Assembly: GCA_963713865.1 (NCBI GenBank)
Contig: OY970208.1
Location: 2,176,001-2,240,000, forward strand
Direction: 5' to 3'
Length of the DNA: 64,000 nt
DNA from: an uncultured candidate division Zixibacteria bacterium
Lineage (GTDB): Bacteria > Zixibacteria > MSB-5A5 > RBG-16-43-9
Shown here: positions 7,308-34,400 of the stretch, one piece after another
How positions within the stretch are numbered: the first letter of the stretch is position 1
How the letters are laid out: each line of letters starts with the position of its first letter
Notes under the pieces: generated by a model
Databases searched by the model: none
What the model was told of the DNA's origin: nothing
What the model saw: the letters and a program-made list of their open reading frames with translations, nothing else
Translations under genes and position numbers: made by a program

Positions 7308-7430
7308 AATGCGTCTCCATATTCTGTAGGGGCGGGACTTGAACTCCTGCTCCAACGACCAGCCAGGAGAAATGTAGGGACAGAACATTGTTCTGTCCTC
7401 TCGTTGCGTGTAGGAATTCCAATTCCCGCA
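7297..7430. repeat. Cluster of GTAG-type REP hairpins
   Basis: GTAGGGGCGGG..., GTAGGGACAGAACATTGTTCTGTCC, GTAGGAATTCCAATTCC; the ACAGAACA/TGTTCTGT hairpin recurs at 46153-46178 and 55726-55751. Confidence 0.75.
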
Positions 7431-23043: not shown

Positions 23044-25485
23044 CTATGCAGTCTTAACTGCTACCTTCACCTTCTTCGTCCCTTTTGGTTTCAGGTCTGA
23101 CAGGGCTTTTTTGGTGAACTCTATTTCCTCTTTGGTAACTATCTTCCTCATCTCTTCCATCACTCTCATCACCCGGGCAAATTTCTGACCTTCTGCCGCG
23201 CTAATCCACTCCAGCTGCAGTCTTTCCGGACGAATCCCTTTCTTCTCCAATTTATCCCACAGCCTTTCCACCCTTCTTTGAGTCCATCTATTCGCATCGA
23301 TATAATGACAGTCTGCAAAATGACACCCGGAAACCAAAACAATGGGAGCACCCTTCTGAAAAGCATATAAGACGAACTGTTCATCTACCCTGCCCGAACA
23401 CATTGTCCTGATCAGCCTTGAGGTAGTGGGATACTGCAATCTGGAGATGCCTGCCATATCTCCACCCGCATAGGAGCACCAGTTACAGGCAAAGACCACG
23501 ATCTTCTCCTCAGGGTTTTCATCTAAGATCGCATCTATCTGAGAGAAAATCTGCCTGTCAGTGAAATGCCTCATAGTGATGGCACCAAAAGGACACTCCG
23601 CTCCGCAGGTTCCACACCCGGCACAGGCCGCCTCGATTATCTCCGCCGGAATTTTCTTTTCACGATCGACAATTATTGATTTAAAGGGACAGGCACGGTA
23701 GCAGATCTCGCAGGCAGTACAGATTTCTTTATCTACAATCGAGGTAATGGCTTCAATTTCTAATTTATCTGAGGCTAATATAATTCCCGCACGTGCTGCT
23801 GCAGCAGATGCCTGGGTTACGCTGTCCTTTACATCTTTAGGAGACTCAGCTACTCCTGCGAAGAAGACCCCTTTGGTAGGAGCATCTATCGGTTTTAATT
23901 TGGGATGTGATTCCATATAAAATCCATCCTGGGTTCGGGAAAGAGTCAAAAGCTGCTGGATAGGGTCATTTTTCCATTTAGGCTCGTATCCGATAGATAA
24001 CACCAGCATGTCCAAATTATGCTTTTCCACCTTCCCGGTGGTGGTGTTCTCTACGGAAAGCAGAAGATTTTTGGTTTCAGGATCTTCCTCTATGTCGCCA
24101 GGGATTCCTCGAATATATTTTACTCCTGCCTCCTTGCTTCTTTTATAAAGGTCCTCAAACCCCTTGCCGAACGTCCGCATGTCCATATAGAAGACTTTCG
24201 CCTCTATGTCCGGATAATGGTCCTTTAAAAGCACTGTATCCTTAACCGTATTCATACAGCAGATATTACTGCAGTAAGGGTTCCCTCTCTTCTCCGAGCG
24301 TGAGCCTACGCACTGGATAAAACCGATGGTTTTAGGGGCTTGGTGATCAGCCGGTCTGATGAAATGCCCGCCAGTTGGACCTCCGGCGCAGATAAGCCTT
24401 TCAAATTCCAGACTGGTGATTACGTTCTCAAAGCGGGTGTAACCGTATTCATCTAATTGAGTGGGGTCATAAATATCCAAGCCCGTAGCGGCGATTATCG
24501 CCCCTACTTCTACATCGATTATCTGATCCTGCATATCGTAATCGATACATTTCTTCTCGCATACCTCAGCGCATTTCCCGCAGGCAATAGGATTATTCCC
24601 CAGACAATCATTCATATTTATCAGATAAGCAGAAGGGACGGCTTGAGGGAGTTGTATATAAATAGCTTTGCGCGAGGAGAAACCCATCTGGTATTCATCC
24701 GGCACTGCAACCGGACAAACCTTAACGCATTCTGCGCAGGAATTGCACTTGGTCTCATCCACATACCGGGCTTTTTTCCTGATCTTAACCTTAAAATTTC
24801 CAATATAACCTGAGACTTTTTCAACTTCACTGTAAGCGTAGAGCTTAATCTTCGGATGTCGACCGACATCCATCATCTTCGGTCCCAGAATTCATATGGA
24901 ACAGTCCATCGTGGGATAGGTCTTATCAATTTGTGCCATTATCCCGCCAATAGAAGGGTCTTTTTCAACCAAATAGACCTGATAACCGGTATCCGCTAAA
25001 TCTAAAGCGGCTTGAATTCCCGCTACACCTCCACCGATAACCAGAGCTTTATTCGTAACTGGAACTACCTTCTCAATCTGCGGCTCTAAAAACCTTGCAC
25101 GTGCTACTCCGATTTTCACCATATCCTTTGCCTTATCCGTAGCACCTTTCCTGTCGTGCAGATGTACCCAGGAACAATGCTCTCTCAGATTTACCATCTC
25201 CAGTAAATATGGATTCACGCCCACATCTGCCACGCAGGCTCTGAAAGTAGGCTCATGCATTCTGGGAGAACAGGAAGCCACCACTACCCGGTTGAGATTA
25301 TTTTCTTTGACATACCTTTTGATCTCATTCTGTCCCGGGTCCGCGCAGGTATATTTGTTCAAAACCGAAACCTTTACATCCGGTAGGGTCTCAGCAAATT
25401 TCCTGACCTCTTCGCAGTCTAAAGAGCCAGCGATATTCAGCCCGCATTCACACACGAAAACCCCGACCCTCAACTCTTCTGCCAA
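23044..25485 (-). CDS. hdrA: HdrA-MvhD fusion, probable selenoprotein (about 813 aa; TGA at 24892-24894 read as Sec)
   Basis: ORFs 24892-25494 and 23044-24876 are in frame: ...[25 protein letters not shown]. HdrA motifs [41 protein letters not shown]-terminal MvhD motifs [32 protein letters not shown] 25485 is 8 nt after AGGAGG. Confidence 0.92.
24853..24894 (-). promoter_or_regulatory. Bacterial SECIS-like hairpin after the in-frame UGA of hdrA-mvhD
   Basis: UGA, then stem GGAUGUC / loop GGUC / GACAUCC; loop starts 27 nt after UGA. Confidence 0.75.
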
Positions 25486-25487
25486 GC

Positions 25488-25558
25488 TACTCACCTCCTA
25501 TGGCTAAAGCCAAAAGTAAAGTTAAATTCATGATATCGTTTTTTTAGTTCTTATTCTT
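25488..25558. repeat. Degenerate copy of the hdrD 3' end (direct repeat of 27066-27136)
   Basis: 30-bp exact match TACTCACCTCCTATGGCTAAAGCCAAAAGT (25488-25517 = 27066-27095) plus ~40 bp of decayed match; reads [16 protein letters not shown] versus [16 protein letters not shown]. Confidence 0.9.
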
Positions 25559-25591
25559 GGCTATTATTGCATAAATGCATATTAATACCTT

Positions 25592-26209
25592 TTATAAAAA
25601 TCTTTCATAACAATCTTTAATAACTATAATAACCTGTTTTCTCAATAATTTATTATTCCACCATATTATTAGACATATAACAGTGGAAGTTATCCCTACT
25701 AATAGGAATCTCATGAATTCGATTTGAACTGTAGAAATTAATAAACAATACGCAAATGCTGCGATTAATGCAAGTGGAGTTGCGATAATTAATGAAAAGT
25801 CTATCGAAATAAAATCCATCCGCTTTCTGACCCACTCGCGTAACCATTCATATCTTTTTAATTTTTCGATATCTTCCAGTTTATCAGTTTTTGTAGTAAG
25901 GATTACAGTATGAGCTTCGATGACTGGTTCGTCCTCAACAGCTGGACTAAACTGTTTATTTGCTTTCCTTAAAGCTGACCTAGACATACCCAGACAAGGA
26001 AGCCACAAATATAAACACTGTTGAAATGCAGATAAAATGTAACCTGCTGGAATAAAAGAAACACCTGCTATTACGCCAATATCACGAAAAGAATTTTCAG
26101 TTTGAGTTAGTAAACAGGGAGATATCGCCCAAATCCATCCGATTACAAGCCCCCAAAAATATGCTCCTGGAATTCCATTTCGTTCAAACCAGTTCACTCT
26201 ATTCTCCAA
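25592..26209 (-). CDS. Hypothetical membrane protein (about four TM segments)
   Basis: 205-aa ORF with two hydrophobic pairs flanking a charged loop; start may be GTG 26197. Confidence 0.65.
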   Translation of the reverse strand: MENRVNWFERNGIPGAYFWGLVIGWIWAISPCLLTQTENSFRDIGVIAGVSFIPAGYILSAFQQCLYLWLPCLGMSRSALRKANKQFSPAVEDEPVIEAHTVILTTKTDKLEDIEKLKRYEWLREWVRKRMDFISIDFSLIIATPLALIAAFAYCLLISTVQIEFMRFLLVGITSTVICLIIWWNNKLLRKQVIIVIKDCYERFL

Positions 26210-26219
26210 TGGCTAAAGC
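26199..26219. repeat. Third, short copy of the hdrD 3'-end sequence
   Basis: Minus strand GCTTTAGCCATTGGAGAATAG (ALAIGE*) versus GCTTTAGCCATAGGAGGTGAGTAA (ALAIGGE*). Confidence 0.6.
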
Positions 26220-26244
26220 ATATGTTATTTTAAAATATTTCATC

Positions 26245-27072
26245 TCATTTCGTTGTTGTGCTAACATATTTCCCCCAATTTTCTAATAATTCTTCTTTAC
26301 TAATATTGTTATCATTAATGATAGGGCTTATCAATTCTATCTTTTCTTCCATCAAATATTTTTTATCAACTCTCTCCAAAAAACTGATCAGTGAATCTCT
26401 AACCCATATAATATTTTCATAAGCAGTCTTCGCGCATTCATAGTTAAAAGAAGAAAAATCTTTTCCTATCTTCGAGATTGGCCAAAAATTATCTGGAAAA
26501 TTATCAGTAAGTTCATGCACTCTATCGGGCTTTAGTTTAGCTAGTACCATGAATGGTTCAGGTTTACCATGCATAATAGAATTCCTTATCTCCACCAATT
26601 CCTCGAAAAGACTAAATGCCTTTGTATTCTTTCTAAAATAGACCGCAGGTGGCGACAGTTGAGAGTTGCATAGAGTCGGTAGAAAATAGACCTTATCTAC
26701 AAGACGCCAGTAATCAATATGATTTTTTCTCTGGTGTCTACTCAGTAGATTCTTAGGCAGATCATCTTTTGCTCTAATAGAGAAATCTTTTAAAACATTA
26801 TTAGCAAATGCCTCAATTCCAGCTATACCCATAATAAAACAAGCTCTGGATGCAGACTTTTCTTTCATCCATAAATCTTGATTGAATTCTTGTGGTTTTG
26901 ATGGATCTTGTCCATGAACTTTTTGATACAATTCTCGTGCCTCATTGTAATAATATTCCATGCTATAAAATAGCGACTGGAATGGACGTCTAATATATTT
27001 AGCGAATTGCCACGGCATAGTAAATTCTTTTGTGTCAGGGTGAGATCCTGACATAATTTGAAATTTACTCAC
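26245..27072 (-). CDS. Hypothetical protein with a HEPN-like RxxxxH motif
   Basis: 275 aa, AT-rich; helical SRACFIMGIAGIEAFAN and ELVEIRNSIMHG. Confidence 0.6.
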   Translation of the reverse strand: MSKFQIMSGSHPDTKEFTMPWQFAKYIRRPFQSLFYSMEYYYNEARELYQKVHGQDPSKPQEFNQDLWMKEKSASRACFIMGIAGIEAFANNVLKDFSIRAKDDLPKNLLSRHQRKNHIDYWRLVDKVYFLPTLCNSQLSPPAVYFRKNTKAFSLFEELVEIRNSIMHGKPEPFMVLAKLKPDRVHELTDNFPDNFWPISKIGKDFSSFNYECAKTAYENIIWVRDSLISFLERVDKKYLMEEKIELISPIINDNNISKEELLENWGKYVSTTTK

Positions 27073-28216
27073 CTCCTATGGCTAAAGCCAAAAGTGTAGT
27101 TAAGTCTATAATATCAATTTTTAATTCTTCTTTCTTTTTCCCCTTTTCTTTTTCTGAACCAGACTGAGCACACTTAAAATGAATCTGGCATTTTGGACAG
27201 GCAGTTACCAGTATCTCTGCTCCAGTTGACCTTGCCTCTTTCAACCTTTCATCTTGAATCTTTTTGGAAGAAGCATCACAGTTTATCCAACCAACAGTAC
27301 CACAGCAGATAGCTTTAGCACCGCTTCTTTTCATCTCTTTAAAATCTACCCCTTTAATGCTGTTAATGACCTTACGGGGAGCTTCATATATGTTCATAAA
27401 TCTGCCCAATCTGCAGGGATCCTGGAAGGTAACTTTTTTATCCAGACCTTTTATTTTTATCTGGGGTAATCTTTCAGCTAAAAACTCGGAGATATGCATA
27501 ACCTCATAGTCAACTTTTCCCACCAAATCCGGATAATCTATTTTCAGGGTCATAAAACATTCCGGACAGGAAGTGATGATTTTCTTAGCCCCGGTTTTTT
27601 TAATCCCGTTTATATTATGTTGAGCTAATTTTTTGAAATTCTCAAAATCCCCGGTCCATAAAAGATCGTGCCCGCAGCACCTCTCATTGGGCATAATCTG
27701 AGGCTCTACTCCTAAGAGATTTAAGATTTTTAAAGTTGAGCGAGCAATATCCAGAGAACTGGCTTTAATATCTGAGAAGAATGTGTCAAAATAGGGCAGA
27801 CAGCCAACAAAGTAAAGATATTCGCCATTTTTTGAAGTTTTTAAATCGGGAGTTATCCAGCCAGTTCTGTCCTGATTCAATTCTGGTGCAGTCATTATCT
27901 TCATAAGAGAATGCAAAGCCCCACCGTGAGAGCATTTCCCTTCCTCGCCAATTTTCTTAGCCTCAAACCTTAGAAGCTTGGTGAACTCAACATAATCCAC
28001 GTCCGAAGGGCAGATATCCTGACACCTCCTGCAGGTCAGACAACTCCATAATCCTGCATCCTGCAAGACATAATCATCTGAGCGGTTCACCGTCAGAGTT
28101 ACCAGTTTTCTCGGAGAATATCCATTCTTGACATTAGCAATCGGGCAAACCGCAGTACATTTACCGCAATCAAGACAATAATAGGCTTTGGTTTTTTTGA
28201 TGATATCTTCTTTCAT
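27065..28216 (-). CDS. HdrD/GlpC-like Fe-S oxidoreductase (2x[4Fe-4S] plus two CCG domains)
   Basis: CLDCGKCTAVCP, WSCLTCRRCQDICP, YFVGC, ERCCG, SCPEC, QDPCRLGR, ICCG, ACPKC. Confidence 0.92.
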   Translation of the reverse strand: MKEDIIKKTKAYYCLDCGKCTAVCPIANVKNGYSPRKLVTLTVNRSDDYVLQDAGLWSCLTCRRCQDICPSDVDYVEFTKLLRFEAKKIGEEGKCSHGGALHSLMKIMTAPELNQDRTGWITPDLKTSKNGEYLYFVGCLPYFDTFFSDIKASSLDIARSTLKILNLLGVEPQIMPNERCCGHDLLWTGDFENFKKLAQHNINGIKKTGAKKIITSCPECFMTLKIDYPDLVGKVDYEVMHISEFLAERLPQIKIKGLDKKVTFQDPCRLGRFMNIYEAPRKVINSIKGVDFKEMKRSGAKAICCGTVGWINCDASSKKIQDERLKEARSTGAEILVTACPKCQIHFKCAQSGSEKEKGKKKEELKIDIIDLTTLLALAIGGE

Positions 28217-28262
28217 AATTTTGCTTTTCGTTTTTGGCTGTTCGCTGTTCGATATTTGATGG

Positions 28263-28367
28263 TGTCATTGCGAGCGATTCCGTAATTTGCTGGAGAGCGA
28301 AGCAATCTGTTTACCCAGATTGGGCGGATTGCTTCGTCGTCCCCTACGGGAACTCCTCGCAATGACA
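28263..28367. repeat. TGTCATTGCGA-family palindromic element
   Basis: tgtcattgcgag...gaagcaatc...gattgcttcgtcg...ctcgcaatgaca. Confidence 0.88.
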
Positions 28368-29372: not shown

Positions 29373-29434
29373 GCGTAGGGGCGGAGTTTACCTCCGCCCT
29401 TGGGGACGGGTGGAGACAAGCTCCACCCCTACGC
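29373..29434. repeat. REP doublet (REPIN-like) downstream of the RAYT
   Basis: GCGTAG-GGGCGGAG tttac CTCCGCCC...GGGTGGAG acaag CTCCACCC-CTACGC; near-identical to 29911-29972. Confidence 0.9.
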
Positions 29435-29875
29435 AAATAGCTCATTTCTTTCTTTCTCCAACTCTTTCTTCAATCGATTATTTAAAATATATTGTGCTTT
29501 TTCAAGATAATCCTTCTCATTTCTAATCACATGATCATAAAATCCTCTCTGCCAAATCTTTTCACTGACACCAAATTCTTCTCGTATGTCTTTAGCAGTA
29601 ACAGATTTAAACCTCTGAATAAGTTGGGATAAAGTGTAATTCTGTTTCTGATTGAAAAACAAAATCAGATGTATATGATCTGGCATAACGCAGAAATGAT
29701 CGATCTCCAACTTATCTATTCTATTTAAATCTTTAAGATTTTTCTCTGCAATCTCCTTAAATGGAATTGTTTTAAAATACCCCTTTTTATTATTACAACT
29801 GATCGTGACAAAGTAAGCCCCTTCAGAGGAATAATCATAATCCTTTAATCTTAATGAGTTCTTTCTTCTGTACAT
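29429..29875 (-). mobile_element. REP-associated tyrosine transposase (RAYT, IS200-like Y1 HUH family)
   Basis: RLKDYDYS..GAYFVT, VMPDHIH (HUH), WQRGFYDHVIRN, YILNN; flanked by GTAG REP doublets. Confidence 0.9.
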
Positions 29876-29910
29876 TGCTTCTCTTTCTCTGCTCTTTATC
29901 TATTCAGTTC

Positions 29911-29972
29911 GCGTAGGGACGGAGTTTACCTCCGCCCTTGGGGAAGGATGGAGATAAGCTCCACCTCTATGC
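29911..29972. repeat. REP doublet (REPIN-like) upstream of the RAYT
   Basis: 62-bp direct copy of 29373-29434 with a few substitutions. Confidence 0.9.
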
Positions 29973-30710
29973 TATTGATCTCTTATACAACTCCAAAGTT
30001 TTATCTATCGTTTCTAAATGTTCCTTTTCATGCTCTAAAAATCTTCTTAACACTTTTCCAAACGTCCATTTTTCATCTTTATATTTAGCATATTTCTTGG
30101 GGATATTTATTCTATTTTTATCTTCTTGGGAAAGATTTTTCAAAATCTTTACAGCTAATTCCCTGGTCTTTTTTAATTTCTCAAATATTTTTCCCGGTGG
30201 GCATTTATATACATAGGGTAAAGCATAAAGCTCCTTGTAATCTTTCATCCTGGAAAGATACCACCACTCGGCATTGGCAATATGATTTAAAGTATCTCTG
30301 ATAGAACGTTTATCTTTGTTTGCTTTCCAGTCTAATGTCTCATCCGATAATTTTCTGACCTTATTCAAAAGCTCTTTCCGGTTATATCCCATCCATTTCA
30401 GACATTTTTTAATAAAATCTTTCGTTGGTGGAATTAAATCGTAAGAGAACAAAGCAGCCTTGCTTCCGCTGATAAGGGGGCAAGTTCCTTTCTGGGTCTC
30501 CACGATTTCGAACTCAATCTTCTTAGGAATTAGCAAACTTTTCTCACCATTTTTCTTTAGATATTCAAGATGTTCTTTTATCACTTCAGGAATTTTTTTT
30601 AAAGCTTTCTTTTCAGTTTTATCCCAGACAAAACATCCTGGGAGTTCCCGGACGTGAGCCATACAATAACCTTTTTTATCAACTTCAAGATAAACTTGAT
30701 ACTTTCTCAT
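29967..30710 (-). CDS. HicB-like N-terminal domain fused to a DinB-like domain
   Basis: AHVRELPGCF...TEKKALKKIPEVI; SIRDTLNHIANAEWWY; KVLRRFLEHEKEH; start ATG 30710. Confidence 0.75.
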   Translation of the reverse strand: MRKYQVYLEVDKKGYCMAHVRELPGCFVWDKTEKKALKKIPEVIKEHLEYLKKNGEKSLLIPKKIEFEIVETQKGTCPLISGSKAALFSYDLIPPTKDFIKKCLKWMGYNRKELLNKVRKLSDETLDWKANKDKRSIRDTLNHIANAEWWYLSRMKDYKELYALPYVYKCPPGKIFEKLKKTRELAVKILKNLSQEDKNRINIPKKYAKYKDEKWTFGKVLRRFLEHEKEHLETIDKTLELYKRSIA

Positions 30711-30811
30711 ATTTTTTGTTTCCCTTCTTGCAGGGCTGGGAGCCCTGCCTACGGGAACAAAAGATTTTGTTTTTCGTAGGTCGGGCACCTTTGCTCGACC
30801 GATTTCATCGC

Positions 30812-31285
30812 TTATTTATAACCGTACAAATCCGGGGGTTTAATACCCAACAGTCGTAAGTAAGTAAACAGCTGACCCCGGTGATGCCAGTGCTCATCAT
30901 GTATTGATGAAAAGCAAATCCAGGTTGGGAATTGGTCTCCCCAGAATACCTTCACATTCTTTTTCATCTGAGTTGGCGTGAGCTTTTTTGCGATTCGGTT
31001 AGTATTTTGATGAACCTTCTTGGCATATTTGATTAAATCATCTATGCTCTTAGCTTCACACGTAGCCTTTTTGAAATCGTCCTCAGAGATAACACCTTTC
31101 TTAGCTCCGTCTGCAAATACTTTCTCACTTTTATAAATATGACAGACCAGCTCTTTTATGGACATAACTTCTGGACAGGGTTTGAAATCGAGCTTGTCCT
31201 CAGGAATTAACTTAATCGCTTTCAAGGTTACCTTATGAACTTTATCAAAGTAACCGAGCATACCCATCACATCTTTTTTCTCCAT
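30812..31285 (-). CDS. DinB/YfiT-family protein
   Basis: LDFKP...SIKELVCHI; HEWHHRGQLFTYLRLLG. Confidence 0.88.
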   Translation of the reverse strand: MEKKDVMGMLGYFDKVHKVTLKAIKLIPEDKLDFKPCPEVMSIKELVCHIYKSEKVFADGAKKGVISEDDFKKATCEAKSIDDLIKYAKKVHQNTNRIAKKLTPTQMKKNVKVFWGDQFPTWICFSSIHDEHWHHRGQLFTYLRLLGIKPPDLYGYK

Positions 31286-31312
31286 AAGACCTCCTTCTAA
31301 AATTAATTCTGT

Positions 31313-31479
31313 GTAGGGGCGAGGTTTCCTCGCCCTTAATTGGGGCAGGGGAACCCTGCCCTTACAAAAATCATTATTCTCAGTGCTTTTCCGTCAGGTC
31401 AGTCCTCCTTAGGTGGACGACGGATACAAATCCGTTTTGCTATAAGGGCACGTTGTCCGCCAAAGGCGGATGCCCCTAC
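31313..31479. repeat. REP cluster downstream of the long hdrA
   Basis: GTAGGGGCGAGGTTTCCTCGCCC + GGGCAGGGGAACCCTGCCC (also at 44982 and 46077), plus two mini-palindromes. Confidence 0.8.
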
Positions 31480-31481
31480 TT

Positions 31482-34400
31482 TTATTCAAAGAGCAAACAG
31501 CTTTCTACCATCTCTTCGATCTGTTCATCCGTAAAGTGATGAGCCACAATTGCACCAGTGGGACACAAAGCCGCACAGGTACCACACCCTTTGCACAAAG
31601 CCTCATTGATCCTGGCTATATATAAACCATCCTTTTCCTCTAAGGATGGAGCATGAAACTCACATATCTTCACACAGGTTCCACATCCCCGGCATAATTC
31701 GGATTCAACTACCTGACAGACAATAGGGGCAAGGTTAATCTTATCCTTGGAGGCAAGGATTGCTGCTTTCCCTGCAGCACCGATCGCCTGTCCAATCGCC
31801 TCCGGAATTAGCTTAGGAGATTGTGCACATCCACAGATGAAAATCCCCTCGGTATTTGTCTCCACTGGTCCTAATTTGGAGTGTCTCTCCATAAAAAACC
31901 CATCTAAACCCCGCGGAGTTTTCAGAAGCTCCTGCAGAAAGGCAAAATCTTTTTCTTTTGGAACCATCCCCACTGACAGAATAACCAGATCTGCTGGAAT
32001 CTCCACCTCGGTTTTGAGTAAAGGCTGGGGAATCTTTACCATCCTTAATTTGTTATCTCCTAAAACCTCTGGAAGATTCTCTTCATCATATCTTAAAAAT
32101 AGAACTCCCAAGCCCCGTGCTTTTCTATATGCCTCTTCAGCCCCTGGGTTAAAAGCCCTTAAATCCCTGTATAAAATAGTTACTTTAATTCCCTTCTCTG
32201 CTAAGGCAATTGCCTGTTTTATCGCTACCTGACAGCAATAGCGTGAACAATATTTTCTCCCTTCTTTTTCTCTTGAGCCGACACATTGGATAAAAACCAC
32301 CTGCTCCGGCTTTTTATCTCCAGTTTTAAACTCTTTCTCCTGTAACAGCTTTTCCGTATCCAAGTTGGTAATCACTTCTGAAAATTTACCATACCCGAAT
32401 TTACCTTTAGGATCATACAAGTCTGAACCTACTGCTAATATTATAGTCCCCGCTTTTAGTTTTGAAGTTTTCTTTTCGCCTTTCGTTTCAACGGTTACTT
32501 CAAAATTCCCTACAAACCCTTCAACCTTCTTGATTTCAGAAGAAGTTAAAATCTTCACCTTATTTTTATTTAGCTCTTCAACTTTTCTTTTCACCAGTTC
32601 TTTCCCGTAAATATCAGAGAAACCGAGCTTGCCTAAAGAAGCAGTTCTCCCTCCTAAGTTCTTCTCTTTTTCTATTAAGGTAACTTTATAACCCTGGGAT
32701 GAAAGGTCTAAAGCTGACTGTATTCCAGAGATTCCACCGCCTATTACCAAAATCTTAGAGTTCATCTGAACTTCCCTGGATTCAAGAGGCTGAAGCATTC
32801 TTGCCTTACTTACTGCCATCCTTATCAAATCTTTAGCTTTAGATGTCGCTTCTTCTGGTTCATTTGCATGCACCCAGGAACACTGGTCCCTTATATTTGC
32901 CATTTCAAAAAGATAAGGATTGAGCCCTGCTCTTTGACAGGTCTCCTGAAAAATAGGCTCATGTGTTCTCGGTGTGCAAGCTGCTACTACCACCCTATTC
33001 AGGTTATGTTCTTTAATTTTATCCTGGAGAAGTCTTTGAGTTCCATCCGAGCAGACGAAAAGGTCTTTCATCACAAAAACCACATCTGGCAGGCTCTTAG
33101 CATACTCCTCTACTGCATTAACATCCACCACTCCCGCGATATTTATCCCGCAATGGCATACAAAAACACCAATTTTGGGAGAACCGGAAATATCAATCGG
33201 CTCGACTTTTACTGGCTCTTTCTTTACCCTTTGACCTTTAAGATGAGAAGAGACTTTCAAAGCTGAGCCAGACCCAAAAGCCACTGAATCGGTGATATCT
33301 TTCAACCCGCCTGCACAGCCACAAAGATAAACCCCCTCTTTGGTTGATTCTAGAGGAGAAGTTATATCTTTGGTTTTGAAAAATCCAGAATGATCCAGCT
33401 CAATCCCTAAAATCTCTGCTAACTCTTTTGTACCAGAAGATGGAACTGCCGCAGAGGAGAGGATGGTTAAATCGACCTTAATCCTTTCGATCTTGCCAGT
33501 ATCCATATTTTCAACTGCAATCCATAGCTCCTTTGTTTTTGGATCTTCAATTATCTTTGAAGGTTTCCCGTGATAGAAAACAACTGATGGATCAGCTTTA
33601 GCTTTTAAATAAAGGTCTTCATATCCCTTTCCAAAAGCTCTTAGATCGTGATAAAAGATATAAATTTTCTCGATCTCCGGCTCGTGTACTTTAGCCATAA
33701 TCGAGTTTTTAACTGCATTCATACAGCAGAAATAGGAACAGTAGGGAACCCCTTTATTATCATTTGACCGGGAGCCAACACACTGGATAAAAGCTAAGGT
33801 CTTGGGCAGTTTTCTATCCGAAGGTCTCCGAATATGACCGCCAGTTGGACCTGAAGCATTGAGTAACCTTTCGAATTCTAAGCCGGTAACCACATCCTCG
33901 TGCAGTGAGTAATCAAAACAGCTTAAAATGGTGGGATCATATTCTTCAAAACCGGTAGCCAGAATAATCGAGCCGACATTAATCTCTATATCCTTATCCA
34001 GCATATCATAATCTATCGATTTTGGCTTGCACACTTCAGAACAGCGCTCGCATACGATAAACTTTTTGTTTAAACAGTACTCCCTGTCGATGATATAAGC
34101 CCTGGGAGAGGCTTGAGGAAAAGGTGAATAGATGGCTTTGCGCGCTCCCAAGCCTAAATCAAAAGCATTCGGGACAATTACCGGGCATTCCTTGGCACAA
34201 TCACCGCAACCCACACAGCTATTCTCGTCCACACCTCTGGATTTCCGCCTGACTGTTACTTTGAAATTACCCTTTTCCCCAGTTACTTCTTTAACTTCAG
34301 AGTAAGTCCAGACTTTTATATTCGGATGCCGACCGGCATCTAACATCCTGGGACCCAGGATTCATATAGCGCAATCCATAGTGGGGAAGGTCTTATCTAA

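Follow-up and report, generated by a model that had tools for sequence, protein, structure and literature searches.

How do unrelated genes come to lie between two neighbouring genes of a core energy-conservation operon, and what do they leave behind at the site? The question is raised by a 64,000-nt stretch of DNA (positions 1-64,000, here called the window) from an uncultured Zixibacteria bacterium whose genome is a single contig of 2.72 Mb. The genes in question follow one another on the minus strand as mvhD (28849-28406), an hdrD-like gene (28216-27065, hereafter hdrD), orf257 (27018-26245), orf205 (26197-25592) and hdrA (25485-23044), and the 3' end of hdrD is present three times in direct orientation, with a single gene between each pair of copies. 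A preliminary description of this DNA had read the arrangement as an integron-like stacking site at which single genes were repeatedly captured. We consider it rather probable that the hdrD-hdrA junction, at about 2.20 Mb of the genome, is a slot for insertion with long target duplication, in which cassettes are afterwards exchanged by homologous recombination.

Three copies of one gene end

All three copies of the hdrD end are real, as the preliminary description had it. Copy 1 (27066-27136, minus strand) is the functional coding end of the gene and contains GGAGGTGA, and copy 3 (25488-25567, minus strand) is a non-coding remnant directly before hdrA. Aligned without gaps, they form a direct repeat of 71 nt (25488-25558 and 27066-27136) that is 1578 nt apart and 80% identical: the first 30 of 30 nucleotides are exact, followed by 27 of 41. 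The local alignment is far outside 60 shuffles (z = 20), and with gaps the homology extends to about 80 nt. The core 18-mer TGGCTTTAGCCATAGGAG and the exact 30-mer each occur only twice in the 2.72-Mb genome, both times at the long copies.

Copy 2 (26199-26220, minus strand; TGCTTTAGCCATTGGAG---AATAG) is short and has 3 mismatches. At up to 3 mismatches the genome holds 10 matches on both strands, 3 of them in this locus, against 4 in a reversed-sequence control. A second reason to hold the short copy beyond chance is that the metagenome contig L054 carries the orthologous junction (its positions 7325-7350) behind its own homologue of orf257. The junction ...AAATAACAT followed directly by TGGCTTTAGCCAT.GGAG is common to the window and L054, and on L054 ...AAATAACAT runs into TGGCTTTAGCCATAGGAG... 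right after the orf257 homologue and right before hdrA. The AT-rich character claimed for the intervening genes is borne out as well, in that the GC content of the 1,578 nt from the hdrD stop to the hdrA start is 0.29-0.40, against 0.44-0.48 in the flanks and 0.404 in the whole genome.

Repeats could in principle mislead an assembler, and the arrangement might then be a chimeric join. We regard this as hardly credible. The genome is one 2.72-Mb contig with all open reading frames (ORFs) of the locus intact, and independent assemblies (L054, and contig C166 of genome G006) carry the same orf257 cassette with the same junctions. A search for sequencing runs gave one of DNA, with a small share, and none of RNA. 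The DNA run added 13 short contigs without joints, three of them pieces 100% identical to the window that cover 26206-26350, 27530-27757 and 28125-28275.

It had also been claimed that each copy supplies a ribosome site for the next gene. This holds for orf205, where GGAG from the short copy lies 6 nt ahead of the GTG at 26197, and for hdrA, where GGAGGTGA lies 5 nt before the TTG at 25485. It does not hold for orf257, because this gene starts at ATG 27018 (MPWQFAKY) and not at GTG 27072, from which it had been listed as orf275; the homologues listed align from query residue 17 or later, the closest from residue 19. In alleles of the junction that lack an insert, hdrA starts 1-3 nt past the hdrD stop and the ribosome site GGAGGTGA lies within the last hdrD codons. 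The last 26 nt or so before hdrA (TTGGCTTTAGCCATAGGAGGTGAATA) are nearly invariant in 13 alleles of family f1, to which the window belongs, whether they are coding or part of a spare copy. Copy 3 follows the same pattern: the 30 nt adjoining hdrA are exact and the 41-50 nt upstream of them about 66-72% identical to copy 1. The spare copy also holds an ATG with a 14-codon mini-ORF (25487-25531, minus strand) whose stop lies 1 nt before the hdrA TTG. This mini-ORF might preserve the coupling of termination to reinitiation, or be there by accident. RNA folding of the three copies gave no structure beyond that of shuffles (z = -1.95, -0.65 and +1.03).

Empty and filled junctions among relatives

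A search of 41 genomes (the source genome included) gave an HdrD-like match in 36, and 21 orthologous genome loci in which both the hdrD end and hdrA are readable were compared. The comparison spans species to families, not strains within one species. Eight of the 21 loci, including that of G001 from the same genus, are empty, with hdrA a few nucleotides past the hdrD stop (alignment gaps of 3-53 nt); the other 13 are filled, with gaps of 313-3086 nt. Metagenomes contributed 80 further loci, of which 31 have hdrA downstream in the fetched flank, two are without the hdrD end and 47 are without hdrA in the flank. Most of these 47 have an HdrD only about 50% identical or lie on short contigs, and one of them (L043) is an empty site followed by a frameshifted hdrA. 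Among the 31, the gap is at most 75 nt in 15, 150-203 nt in four and at least 468 nt in 12.

Of the 12 close relatives with a readable junction and an HdrD at least 81% identical to that of the window, ten are empty (HdrD 81-93% identical), namely three genomes (G001, G007, G004) and seven metagenome contigs (L040-L044, L053, L069). The remaining two, L054 and G006/L130, hold a CAAX-protease-like gene together with orf257, and the empty relatives branch on both sides of these filled ones. If capture at this junction were real, the preliminary description had reasoned, relatives should show one-copy empty sites and alternative cargo with duplications of its own, whereas fixation of both genes across the lineage with no empty allele would speak against it. 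The ten empty relatives answer the second point together with the first, and alternative cargo with its own hdrD-end duplication is found at the same junction in other lineages. The proposed stacking of genes is seen in the cassette of orf257 (a putative HEPN-fold protein, below), which occurs in two arrangements, one in the window and the other in L054 and L130.

Beyond the close relatives the contents of the slot diversify. Family f2 keeps a PNPOx-like gene there, and in this family and beyond it are proteins of 332, 411 and 123 amino acids, DUF4258 toxins with two unrelated antitoxins, a ParE pair, an aspartyl protease and two kinds of MNT/HEPN pairs. Counted as arrangements, at least 11 cargo sets occupy the hdrD-hdrA junction. 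Cargo genes with a Pfam match, or with conservation between alleles, all share the orientation of hdr (the ORF picker also took some antisense ORFs without a family match). This co-orientation is no more than suggestive, since most neighbouring genes in bacteria point the same way in any case.

The filled state could instead be ancestral, with repeated precise loss between the direct repeats and little or no repeated capture. Recombination of copy 1 with copy 3 would indeed restore a perfect empty site, and orf257 is present in two genera of family f1. We consider this very unlikely all the same. Not all of the 11 or more unrelated cargo sets can be ancestral, the empty close relatives lie on both sides of the filled ones, and the insert has a GC content well under that of genome and flanks. 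Two further observations from the sections below point the same way: the synonymous divergence (dS) of orf257 is about half that of the flanking genes, and the duplications differ widely in age, their identities running from about 93% down to 73%.

Independent duplications of the hdrD end

When the hdrD end of each genome was aligned to its own gap and compared with shuffles, five alleles gave significant copies. In the window the copy of about 71-80 nt (z = 20) lies before hdrA, and so does the exact 18-nt copy of L054 (z = 5.4). In L026 the copy measures 136 nt at about 93% identity (z = 73) and follows a DUF4258 toxin-antitoxin pair after 21 nt; in L037 it measures 64-74 nt at 73-75% (z = 14.5) and follows a different toxin-antitoxin pair. 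The two toxins are 29% identical and their antitoxins are unrelated, so these duplications are separate events. In L055 a hairpin-bearing spacer of 59 nt alone stands between hdrD and a copy of 56 nt that is 84% identical. By event, the duplicated length is thus 18-24, 56-74, about 80 or 136 nt. In the other filled alleles no copy of the resident hdrD end was significant, and in family f2 a stretch before hdrA (GATTTGAC...ATGAAAGCTTAGGAGGTGAA) resembles the old remains of an ancestral ...DLT...LGGE* end.

At least five separate insertions in this order have duplicated 18-136 nt of the hdrD end. Together with the empty sites and the alternative cargo, they support what the preliminary description inferred, that genes were captured repeatedly at a coding 3' end.

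Could each of these instead be a decayed integrative element? Its integrase would have targeted the hdrD 3' end, its attP would have restored the gene, the 30 exact nucleotides would be the core of attL and attR, and the integrase would since have been deleted. An exact 30-nt core beside a diverged arm (27 of 41) is what is seen at tRNA-gene att sites, the insert is low in GC, and Furuta et al. name site-specific integration as the main look-alike of long target duplication (PMC2853133). The exact 30 nt beside a decayed remainder can be explained without an att core, because the hdrA initiation region is near-invariant in empty alleles too. The 1.58-kb insert has no integrase remnant and is filled by two ORFs, neither of whose products matches a mobility family in Pfam, NCBIfam or PADLOC. 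It is also modular, with a third copy inside it, and orf257 occurs in L054 without orf205. Five events with differing cargo and repeat lengths would need five elements, and none of the 25 filled alleles examined carries an integrase. We therefore judge a decayed element improbable. Import of a foreign hdrD 3' tract along with the cassette was also considered and was not seen, since the nucleotide identity of hdrD to that of G001 stays in its usual range of 84-95% right to the 3' end. A search for a donor lineage of the diverged part of copy 3 singled out none: all family-f1 hdrD ends, its own included, match it at 72-80% identity.

Recombination at the locus

Two comparisons indicate that the slot and its surroundings recombine between lineages. 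Between the window and L054, dS (NG86) is 0.84 for orf257 and 1.37-1.89 for hdrD, hdrA and mvhD; the lower value for orf257 implies that the cassette copies are younger than the split of their hosts. Within hdrA, 317 nt (24854-25170) differ from L041 by a single mismatch against a background of 91% identity, and about 1e-6 such runs are expected under uniform divergence. This stretch, some 300 nt from the slot, reads as a recent tract of homologous recombination between lineages.

The cassettes themselves come in different combinations. In the window and in L054/L130 alike, orf257 ends at the same 3' junction and is preceded by a homologous hairpin leader, but its neighbours differ. orf205 is no obligate partner of it, as L054 and G006 have a CAAX-protease-like membrane protein beside the HEPN gene. 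The order found in the window (hdrD, orf257, copy, orf205, copy, hdrA) fits what a crossover of two single-cassette alleles in a shared copy would give, and the same order would result if a circle bearing one copy integrated.

The cargo genes

The 257-residue product of orf257 (26245-27018, minus strand) belongs to a small, unnamed family with 53 cluster representatives among 1.84 billion proteins and members in 32 of 285 genomes of the class. E69, R145 and H150 are invariant in 33 aligned members (IRNSIMH, R-x4-H, with N after R), and R145 and H150 agree with the R-x4-6-H catalytic motif of HEPN proteins. An AlphaFold2 model (pLDDT 95.5) was compared with 48,161 chains in a VIA structure search. 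The top seven matches are HEPN-type: HI0074, TT1696, AF_0298, ST0689, the sacsin HEPN, an AMPylated HEPN toxin and SO_3166, some of which carry the designation in their title and others of which we take to be HEPN-type. Their Z scores of 7.5-8.6 are in a range common for helical models. Foldseek against the PDB returned nothing at E <= 0.001, the weak matches including several HEPN toxins, and there was no match in Pfam or NCBIfam. PADLOC gave a weak RTasHEPN match (E 0.0088) over 21 residues on the motif, short of recognition by a curated HEPN model. We read the product of orf257 as a putative RNase of toxin or defence type: the motif is present, and the HEPN fold is probable.

With known HEPN toxins (HepT/MNT, AbiV-type and RnlA-type) the predicted protein shares R-x4-H and probably the helical fold. 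It differs from them in having about twice the size of minimal HEPN proteins and in lacking a significant match to a Pfam, NCBIfam or PADLOC HEPN model. Unlike HepT/MNT pairs, it has no MNT partner; the gene beside it codes for a membrane protein in the window and for a CAAX-protease-like one in L054.

Two other origins for the cassette were tried. No relative of orf257 was found in viral contigs, and a phage origin is not supported. A mobile family carrying its own duplication was rejected: of 29 class-wide orf257 loci, 26 could be tested, and 24 of these are without flanking gene-end repeats. The two with flank repeats are the window (z = 4) and L131, where the repeats are REP-like (z = 16).

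The second cargo gene, orf205 (25592-26197, minus strand), encodes an orphan membrane protein of 201 residues from the GTG at 26197, with four hydrophobic helices recognised by eye. It has 3 relatives in 5.8 billion clusters, the database copy also being 201 residues long. It has no Pfam, NCBIfam or PADLOC match, and in the protein atlas it falls only among unnamed clusters, with recognition below the benchmark of the tool.

Other duplicated gene ends in the genome

The preliminary description had also proposed scanning the genome for other duplicated gene ends that flank orphan genes. We screened it for direct repeats that were unique, measured 35-220 nt, stood 0.3-9 kb apart and took in the 3' end of an ORF with 120 codons or more. 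This gave 16 candidates, eight with the geometry of insertion behind the gene, five with the opposite geometry and three ambiguous; with such proportions the geometry alone is not significant. Six candidate loci, which hold seven of the eight with the expected geometry, were annotated with Pfam for their repeats and neighbours only.

In line with that proposal, the genome yields at least six further gene-end duplications, candidate insertions of the same kind, in which the copy lies 0.8-5.3 kb downstream with co-oriented genes between. The largest spacing is behind mnmE (G000:C1 668393-673751, L163), where copies of 50 nt, 92% identical and 5.3 kb apart, enclose six co-oriented ORFs, one of them SieB-like. 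Behind a czcD-like transporter gene (707538-709185, L164) a 55-nt repeat surrounds an HNH nuclease gene; behind clpB (31090-32707, L161) a 41-nt repeat surrounds the gene of a dockerin-domain protein; and behind a Zn-dependent dehydrogenase gene (Zn-ADH; 1248920-1249808, L165) a 54-nt repeat surrounds a DUF5674 gene and one more gene. A 375-residue ORF (583334-586202, L162) has a 55-nt repeat around an M4 peptidase gene, and pepF (2502299-2507233, L166) has one of 149 nt, 4.8 kb apart. The sequences duplicated at the different sites of the genome are mutually unrelated.

Recombinases, hairpins and a possible site-specific system

A profile search over the whole genome with PF00589 and TIGR02249 found tyrosine-recombinase matches at three places: an intact gene at 1.125 Mb, a frameshifted one at 1.58 Mb and a 99-residue fragment at 753,928. 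All lie more than 600 kb from the slot, the sole intact one at a distance above 1 Mb. The TIGR02249 cut-off for integron integrases is reached by none of them, and no IntI adjoins the entry site. The 99-residue fragment (G000:C1:753928-754134) is an isolated frame about 80 kb from the mnmE array; its match covers the C-terminal quarter of the model for integron integrases and stays below the cut-off (E 2e-30). No local inverted repeat of the attC kind was seen at the cassette ends of the window, although no attC covariance model was run, and the older cassette boundaries in the nine-gene array of L037 and the seven-gene array of L055 have no repeat in common. Nor is there a fixed crossover point, given that the duplicated length changes from event to event.

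The statement that no integrase or transposase is adjacent needs dividing. No integrase is near, but an IS200-like Y1 transposase gene (29429-29875) lies 2.3 kb upstream of the site. It is not linked to the insert, because G001 has the same transposase region and an empty site.

Short hairpins recur around the slot. One of them, GTCAGG-N7-CCTGAC at 27034-27052, lies between the hdrD stop and the orf257 start and belongs to a REP-like family, GTCAGG-N(3-12)-CCTGAC, with 37 copies in the genome against an estimated 0.6 or so expected from composition; its copies are often paired and often read GTCAGGAGGTAACTCCTGAC. On L054 the CAAX-protease-like gene is bracketed by two 58-nt double hairpins, 90% identical, that are related to this family.

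A dedicated site-specific system acting in trans, after the manner of an integron, would have a distant recombinase insert promoterless circular cassettes at the end of hdrD, or of expressed genes generally, in one orientation. Several features invite this reading. One junction has been used repeatedly, the cassettes entered 0-6 nt from the hdrD stop in four of the five events, the family-supported cargo is compact and all co-oriented, and the same orf257 3' junction stands in two arrangements. Cargo of the toxin-antitoxin and HEPN/MNT types is typical of chromosomal integron arrays; the genome holds the integrase-like fragment; and there are at least seven such sites in this one genome. Yet the duplications measure anything between 18 and 136 nt, the copies consist of hdrD coding sequence and are not palindromic sites, and the older boundaries have neither an attC-like nor any other repeat in common. 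The duplicated sequences elsewhere in the genome are unrelated, the orf257 loci tested across the class mostly have no gene-end repeats, no integron integrase is recognised at the cut-off, and the sole intact tyrosine recombinase is the one at 1.125 Mb. A system of this kind seems unlikely to us. The integron-like attachment site originally proposed is likewise not supported, in view of the variable duplication length, the absence of an attC-like palindrome at the cassette ends and the lack of a nearby recombinase.

There is a further, speculative idea that we hold to be unlikely too, namely that Zixibacteria have a dedicated non-integron process that places promoterless single-gene cassettes in sense orientation after the stop codons of expressed genes and copies a variable length of the gene end behind them. 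Its enzyme might be tied to the REP-like hairpins and Y1/RAYT-type transposases, or might be a repair polymerase. If such a process exists, it would account in this genome for the slot at hdrD-hdrA, the array behind mnmE, the slot at czcD and four or more further sites.

A proposed insertion with target duplication, and what weighs against it

We propose that foreign single genes or gene pairs without mobility genes enter directly behind the hdrD stop, and that each entry directly duplicates a variable length (18-136 nt) of the hdrD end. As candidate chemistries, a staggered break might be repaired, replication might switch template, or a circle with one copy might integrate in Campbell fashion. 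Insertion without such a duplication cuts hdrA off from its initiation region, so only duplicating events would keep the operon working. In other words, a selective filter may retain those events that leave hdrD whole and put a fresh copy of its last 30 nt or so, the hdrA initiation region, before hdrA. Selection on this region would also explain why the 30 nt beside hdrA stay exact while the rest of the copy decays.

Once in place, the copies, the flanking hdr genes and the REP-like hairpins would serve as portable homology. Homologous recombination between lineages could then add, stack, swap and delete cassettes. In the window this may be how the orf205 cassette came to be stacked with the HEPN cassette that L054 and G006 also have. 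We hypothesize that the cargo rides on transcription of the hdr operon. A terminator scan gave five consensus matches against 2.8 expected, all of them weak stems of 5-6 bp within coding sequence.

Several observations weigh against this account or against parts of it. The right edge of the duplication falls 0-6 nt from the hdrD stop in four of the five events, despite a spacer of about 60-110 nt in L026 and L037, which hints at some positional preference beyond selection; the co-orientation of the cargo, too, could be mechanistic and not selective. The 30 of 30 exact nucleotides beside an arm of 27 of 41 are also typical of an att-site crossover core, and the diverged part of copy 3 is not clearly nearer to the hdrD of any sampled lineage than to its own. 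If orf205 was the second of the two insertions in the window, its copy of about 80 nt cannot derive from the local 22-nt copy. The dS values are near saturation, and the low GC at third codon positions of orf257 (0.29) may bias its dS downward. The supposed old remnant in family f2 draws on GATTTGAC...TTAGGAGGTGAA, and its alignment to the hdrD end of the respective genome is not significant. Finally, the mechanism of insertion is read from completed junctions, and the short contigs of the one sequencing run show neither an intermediate nor a polymorphic population.

The surrounding hdr cluster

The hdrD gene (27065-28216, minus strand) is intact; its product of 383 residues has a 4Fe-4S dicluster and two CCG domains (Pfam CCG, E 5e-34, and Fer4_8) and is 93% identical to the G001 orthologue. 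The mvhD gene upstream of it (28849-28406, minus strand) is taken from the ORF listing. According to Pfam, hdrA (23044-25485, minus strand) carries a fused MvhD (FlpD) domain. It is read through an in-frame TGA at 24892-24894, giving ...TMDCSIUILGPK..., and this codon probably encodes selenocysteine. The break between the N- and C-terminal parts of HdrA falls at the same position in all relatives examined. A second hdrA-like gene (31482-34346) begins at the equivalent position (MLDAGRHP) and may extend upstream through a TGA too.

A second low-GC stretch in the hdr cluster (29429-31285, 0.30-0.38) contains the Y1 transposase gene, a gene for a HicB-like/DinB fusion and a DinB-family gene. The stretch is present in G001, while G007 and G004 gave no match to the part of it with the transposase and permease genes. 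The Y1 gene, possibly RAYT-type, is flanked by direct double-hairpin REP-like copies at 29382-29406 and 29920-29944, built of GGTGGAG..CTCCACC and GGGCGGAG..CTCCGCCC. Pieces of these and of other short elements between 28300 and 31600 recur on many contigs of G001, G007 and G004.

Relation to known systems and implications

Nobusato et al. are said to have described, in 2000, the insertion of restriction-modification units with long target duplication. In the later study by Furuta, Abe and Kobayashi (2010, PMC2853133), such units are inserted without other mobile elements and with long, variable direct repeats. A length above 30 bp was required there, and the tables show about 45 to more than 400 bp. 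The repeats duplicate sequence that is single-copy in a relative with an empty site, at times overlapping a gene's 3' end. The mechanism is left open, with double-strand breakage suggested as possibly involved.

The hdrD-hdrA slot has the same hallmarks: repeats above 30 bp (71 nt ungapped, about 80 gapped), one-copy empty sites in the three genomes and seven contigs named above, no mobility gene in or beside the insert, and a repeat that is not dispersed in the genome, its 18-mer being confined to the two long copies. Shared as well are an insert GC below the genome average and variable, genome-unique repeats that can overlap the 3' end of a gene. The cargo is where the two part, with a HEPN-fold and a membrane protein here, and toxin-antitoxin pairs, MNT/HEPN pairs and others in relatives, in place of restriction and modification genes; in Furuta et al. 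the latter belong to the screen and not to the type of rearrangement. What is different here, too, is that the site lies between two translationally coupled genes of an energy-metabolism operon, that the duplication carries the ribosome site of the next gene, and that the same junction has been used at least five times, with cassettes stacked.

The exchange of cassettes at a fixed place recalls the minimal mobile elements of Neisseria, reportedly named by Saunders and Snyder in 2002. In the usage of PMC1797815 the term stands for a fixed site between conserved genes that holds alternative clusters of up to three genes without mobility genes, their exchange being ascribed to homologous recombination in the flanks. 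The 11 or more cargo sets between hdrD and hdrA conform to this. In contrast to Neisseria, the site is inside an operon and the recent cassettes are bounded by a copy of the upstream gene's end. Natural transformation is not known for these uncultured bacteria.

Chromosomal integrons resemble the slot in their compact, co-oriented cassettes, mostly single genes without evident promoters, that are stacked at a fixed entry with the newest adjoining the entry point, and in cargo rich in toxin-antitoxin genes. Here, there is neither IntI nor attC, and the boundary repeats are copies of host coding sequence of variable length. Integrative elements at the 3' ends of tRNA and protein genes likewise share direct repeats of a gene end, a gene restored by its copy, and an exact core with a diverged arm. 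They differ from the slot in that no allele seen here has an integrase, the inserts are of one or two genes and the repeat length varies. The locus is best described as another instance of insertion with long target duplication, a rearrangement already known, and as one that is unusual in its site within a core operon and in its many reuses.

For annotation, spare copies of a gene end can flag recently acquired accessory genes, and they account for small in-frame pseudo-ORFs upstream of operon genes. The junction also offers a natural series of events that differ in age and cargo, with more candidate sites in the same genome, and the rules of the junction (entry point, duplication length and orientation) should be derivable by comparing such events. 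For the bacteria themselves, the contents of the slot are probably toxin-like or defence-like, and the finding means that a core energy-conservation operon can act as a landing pad for such genes without being broken.

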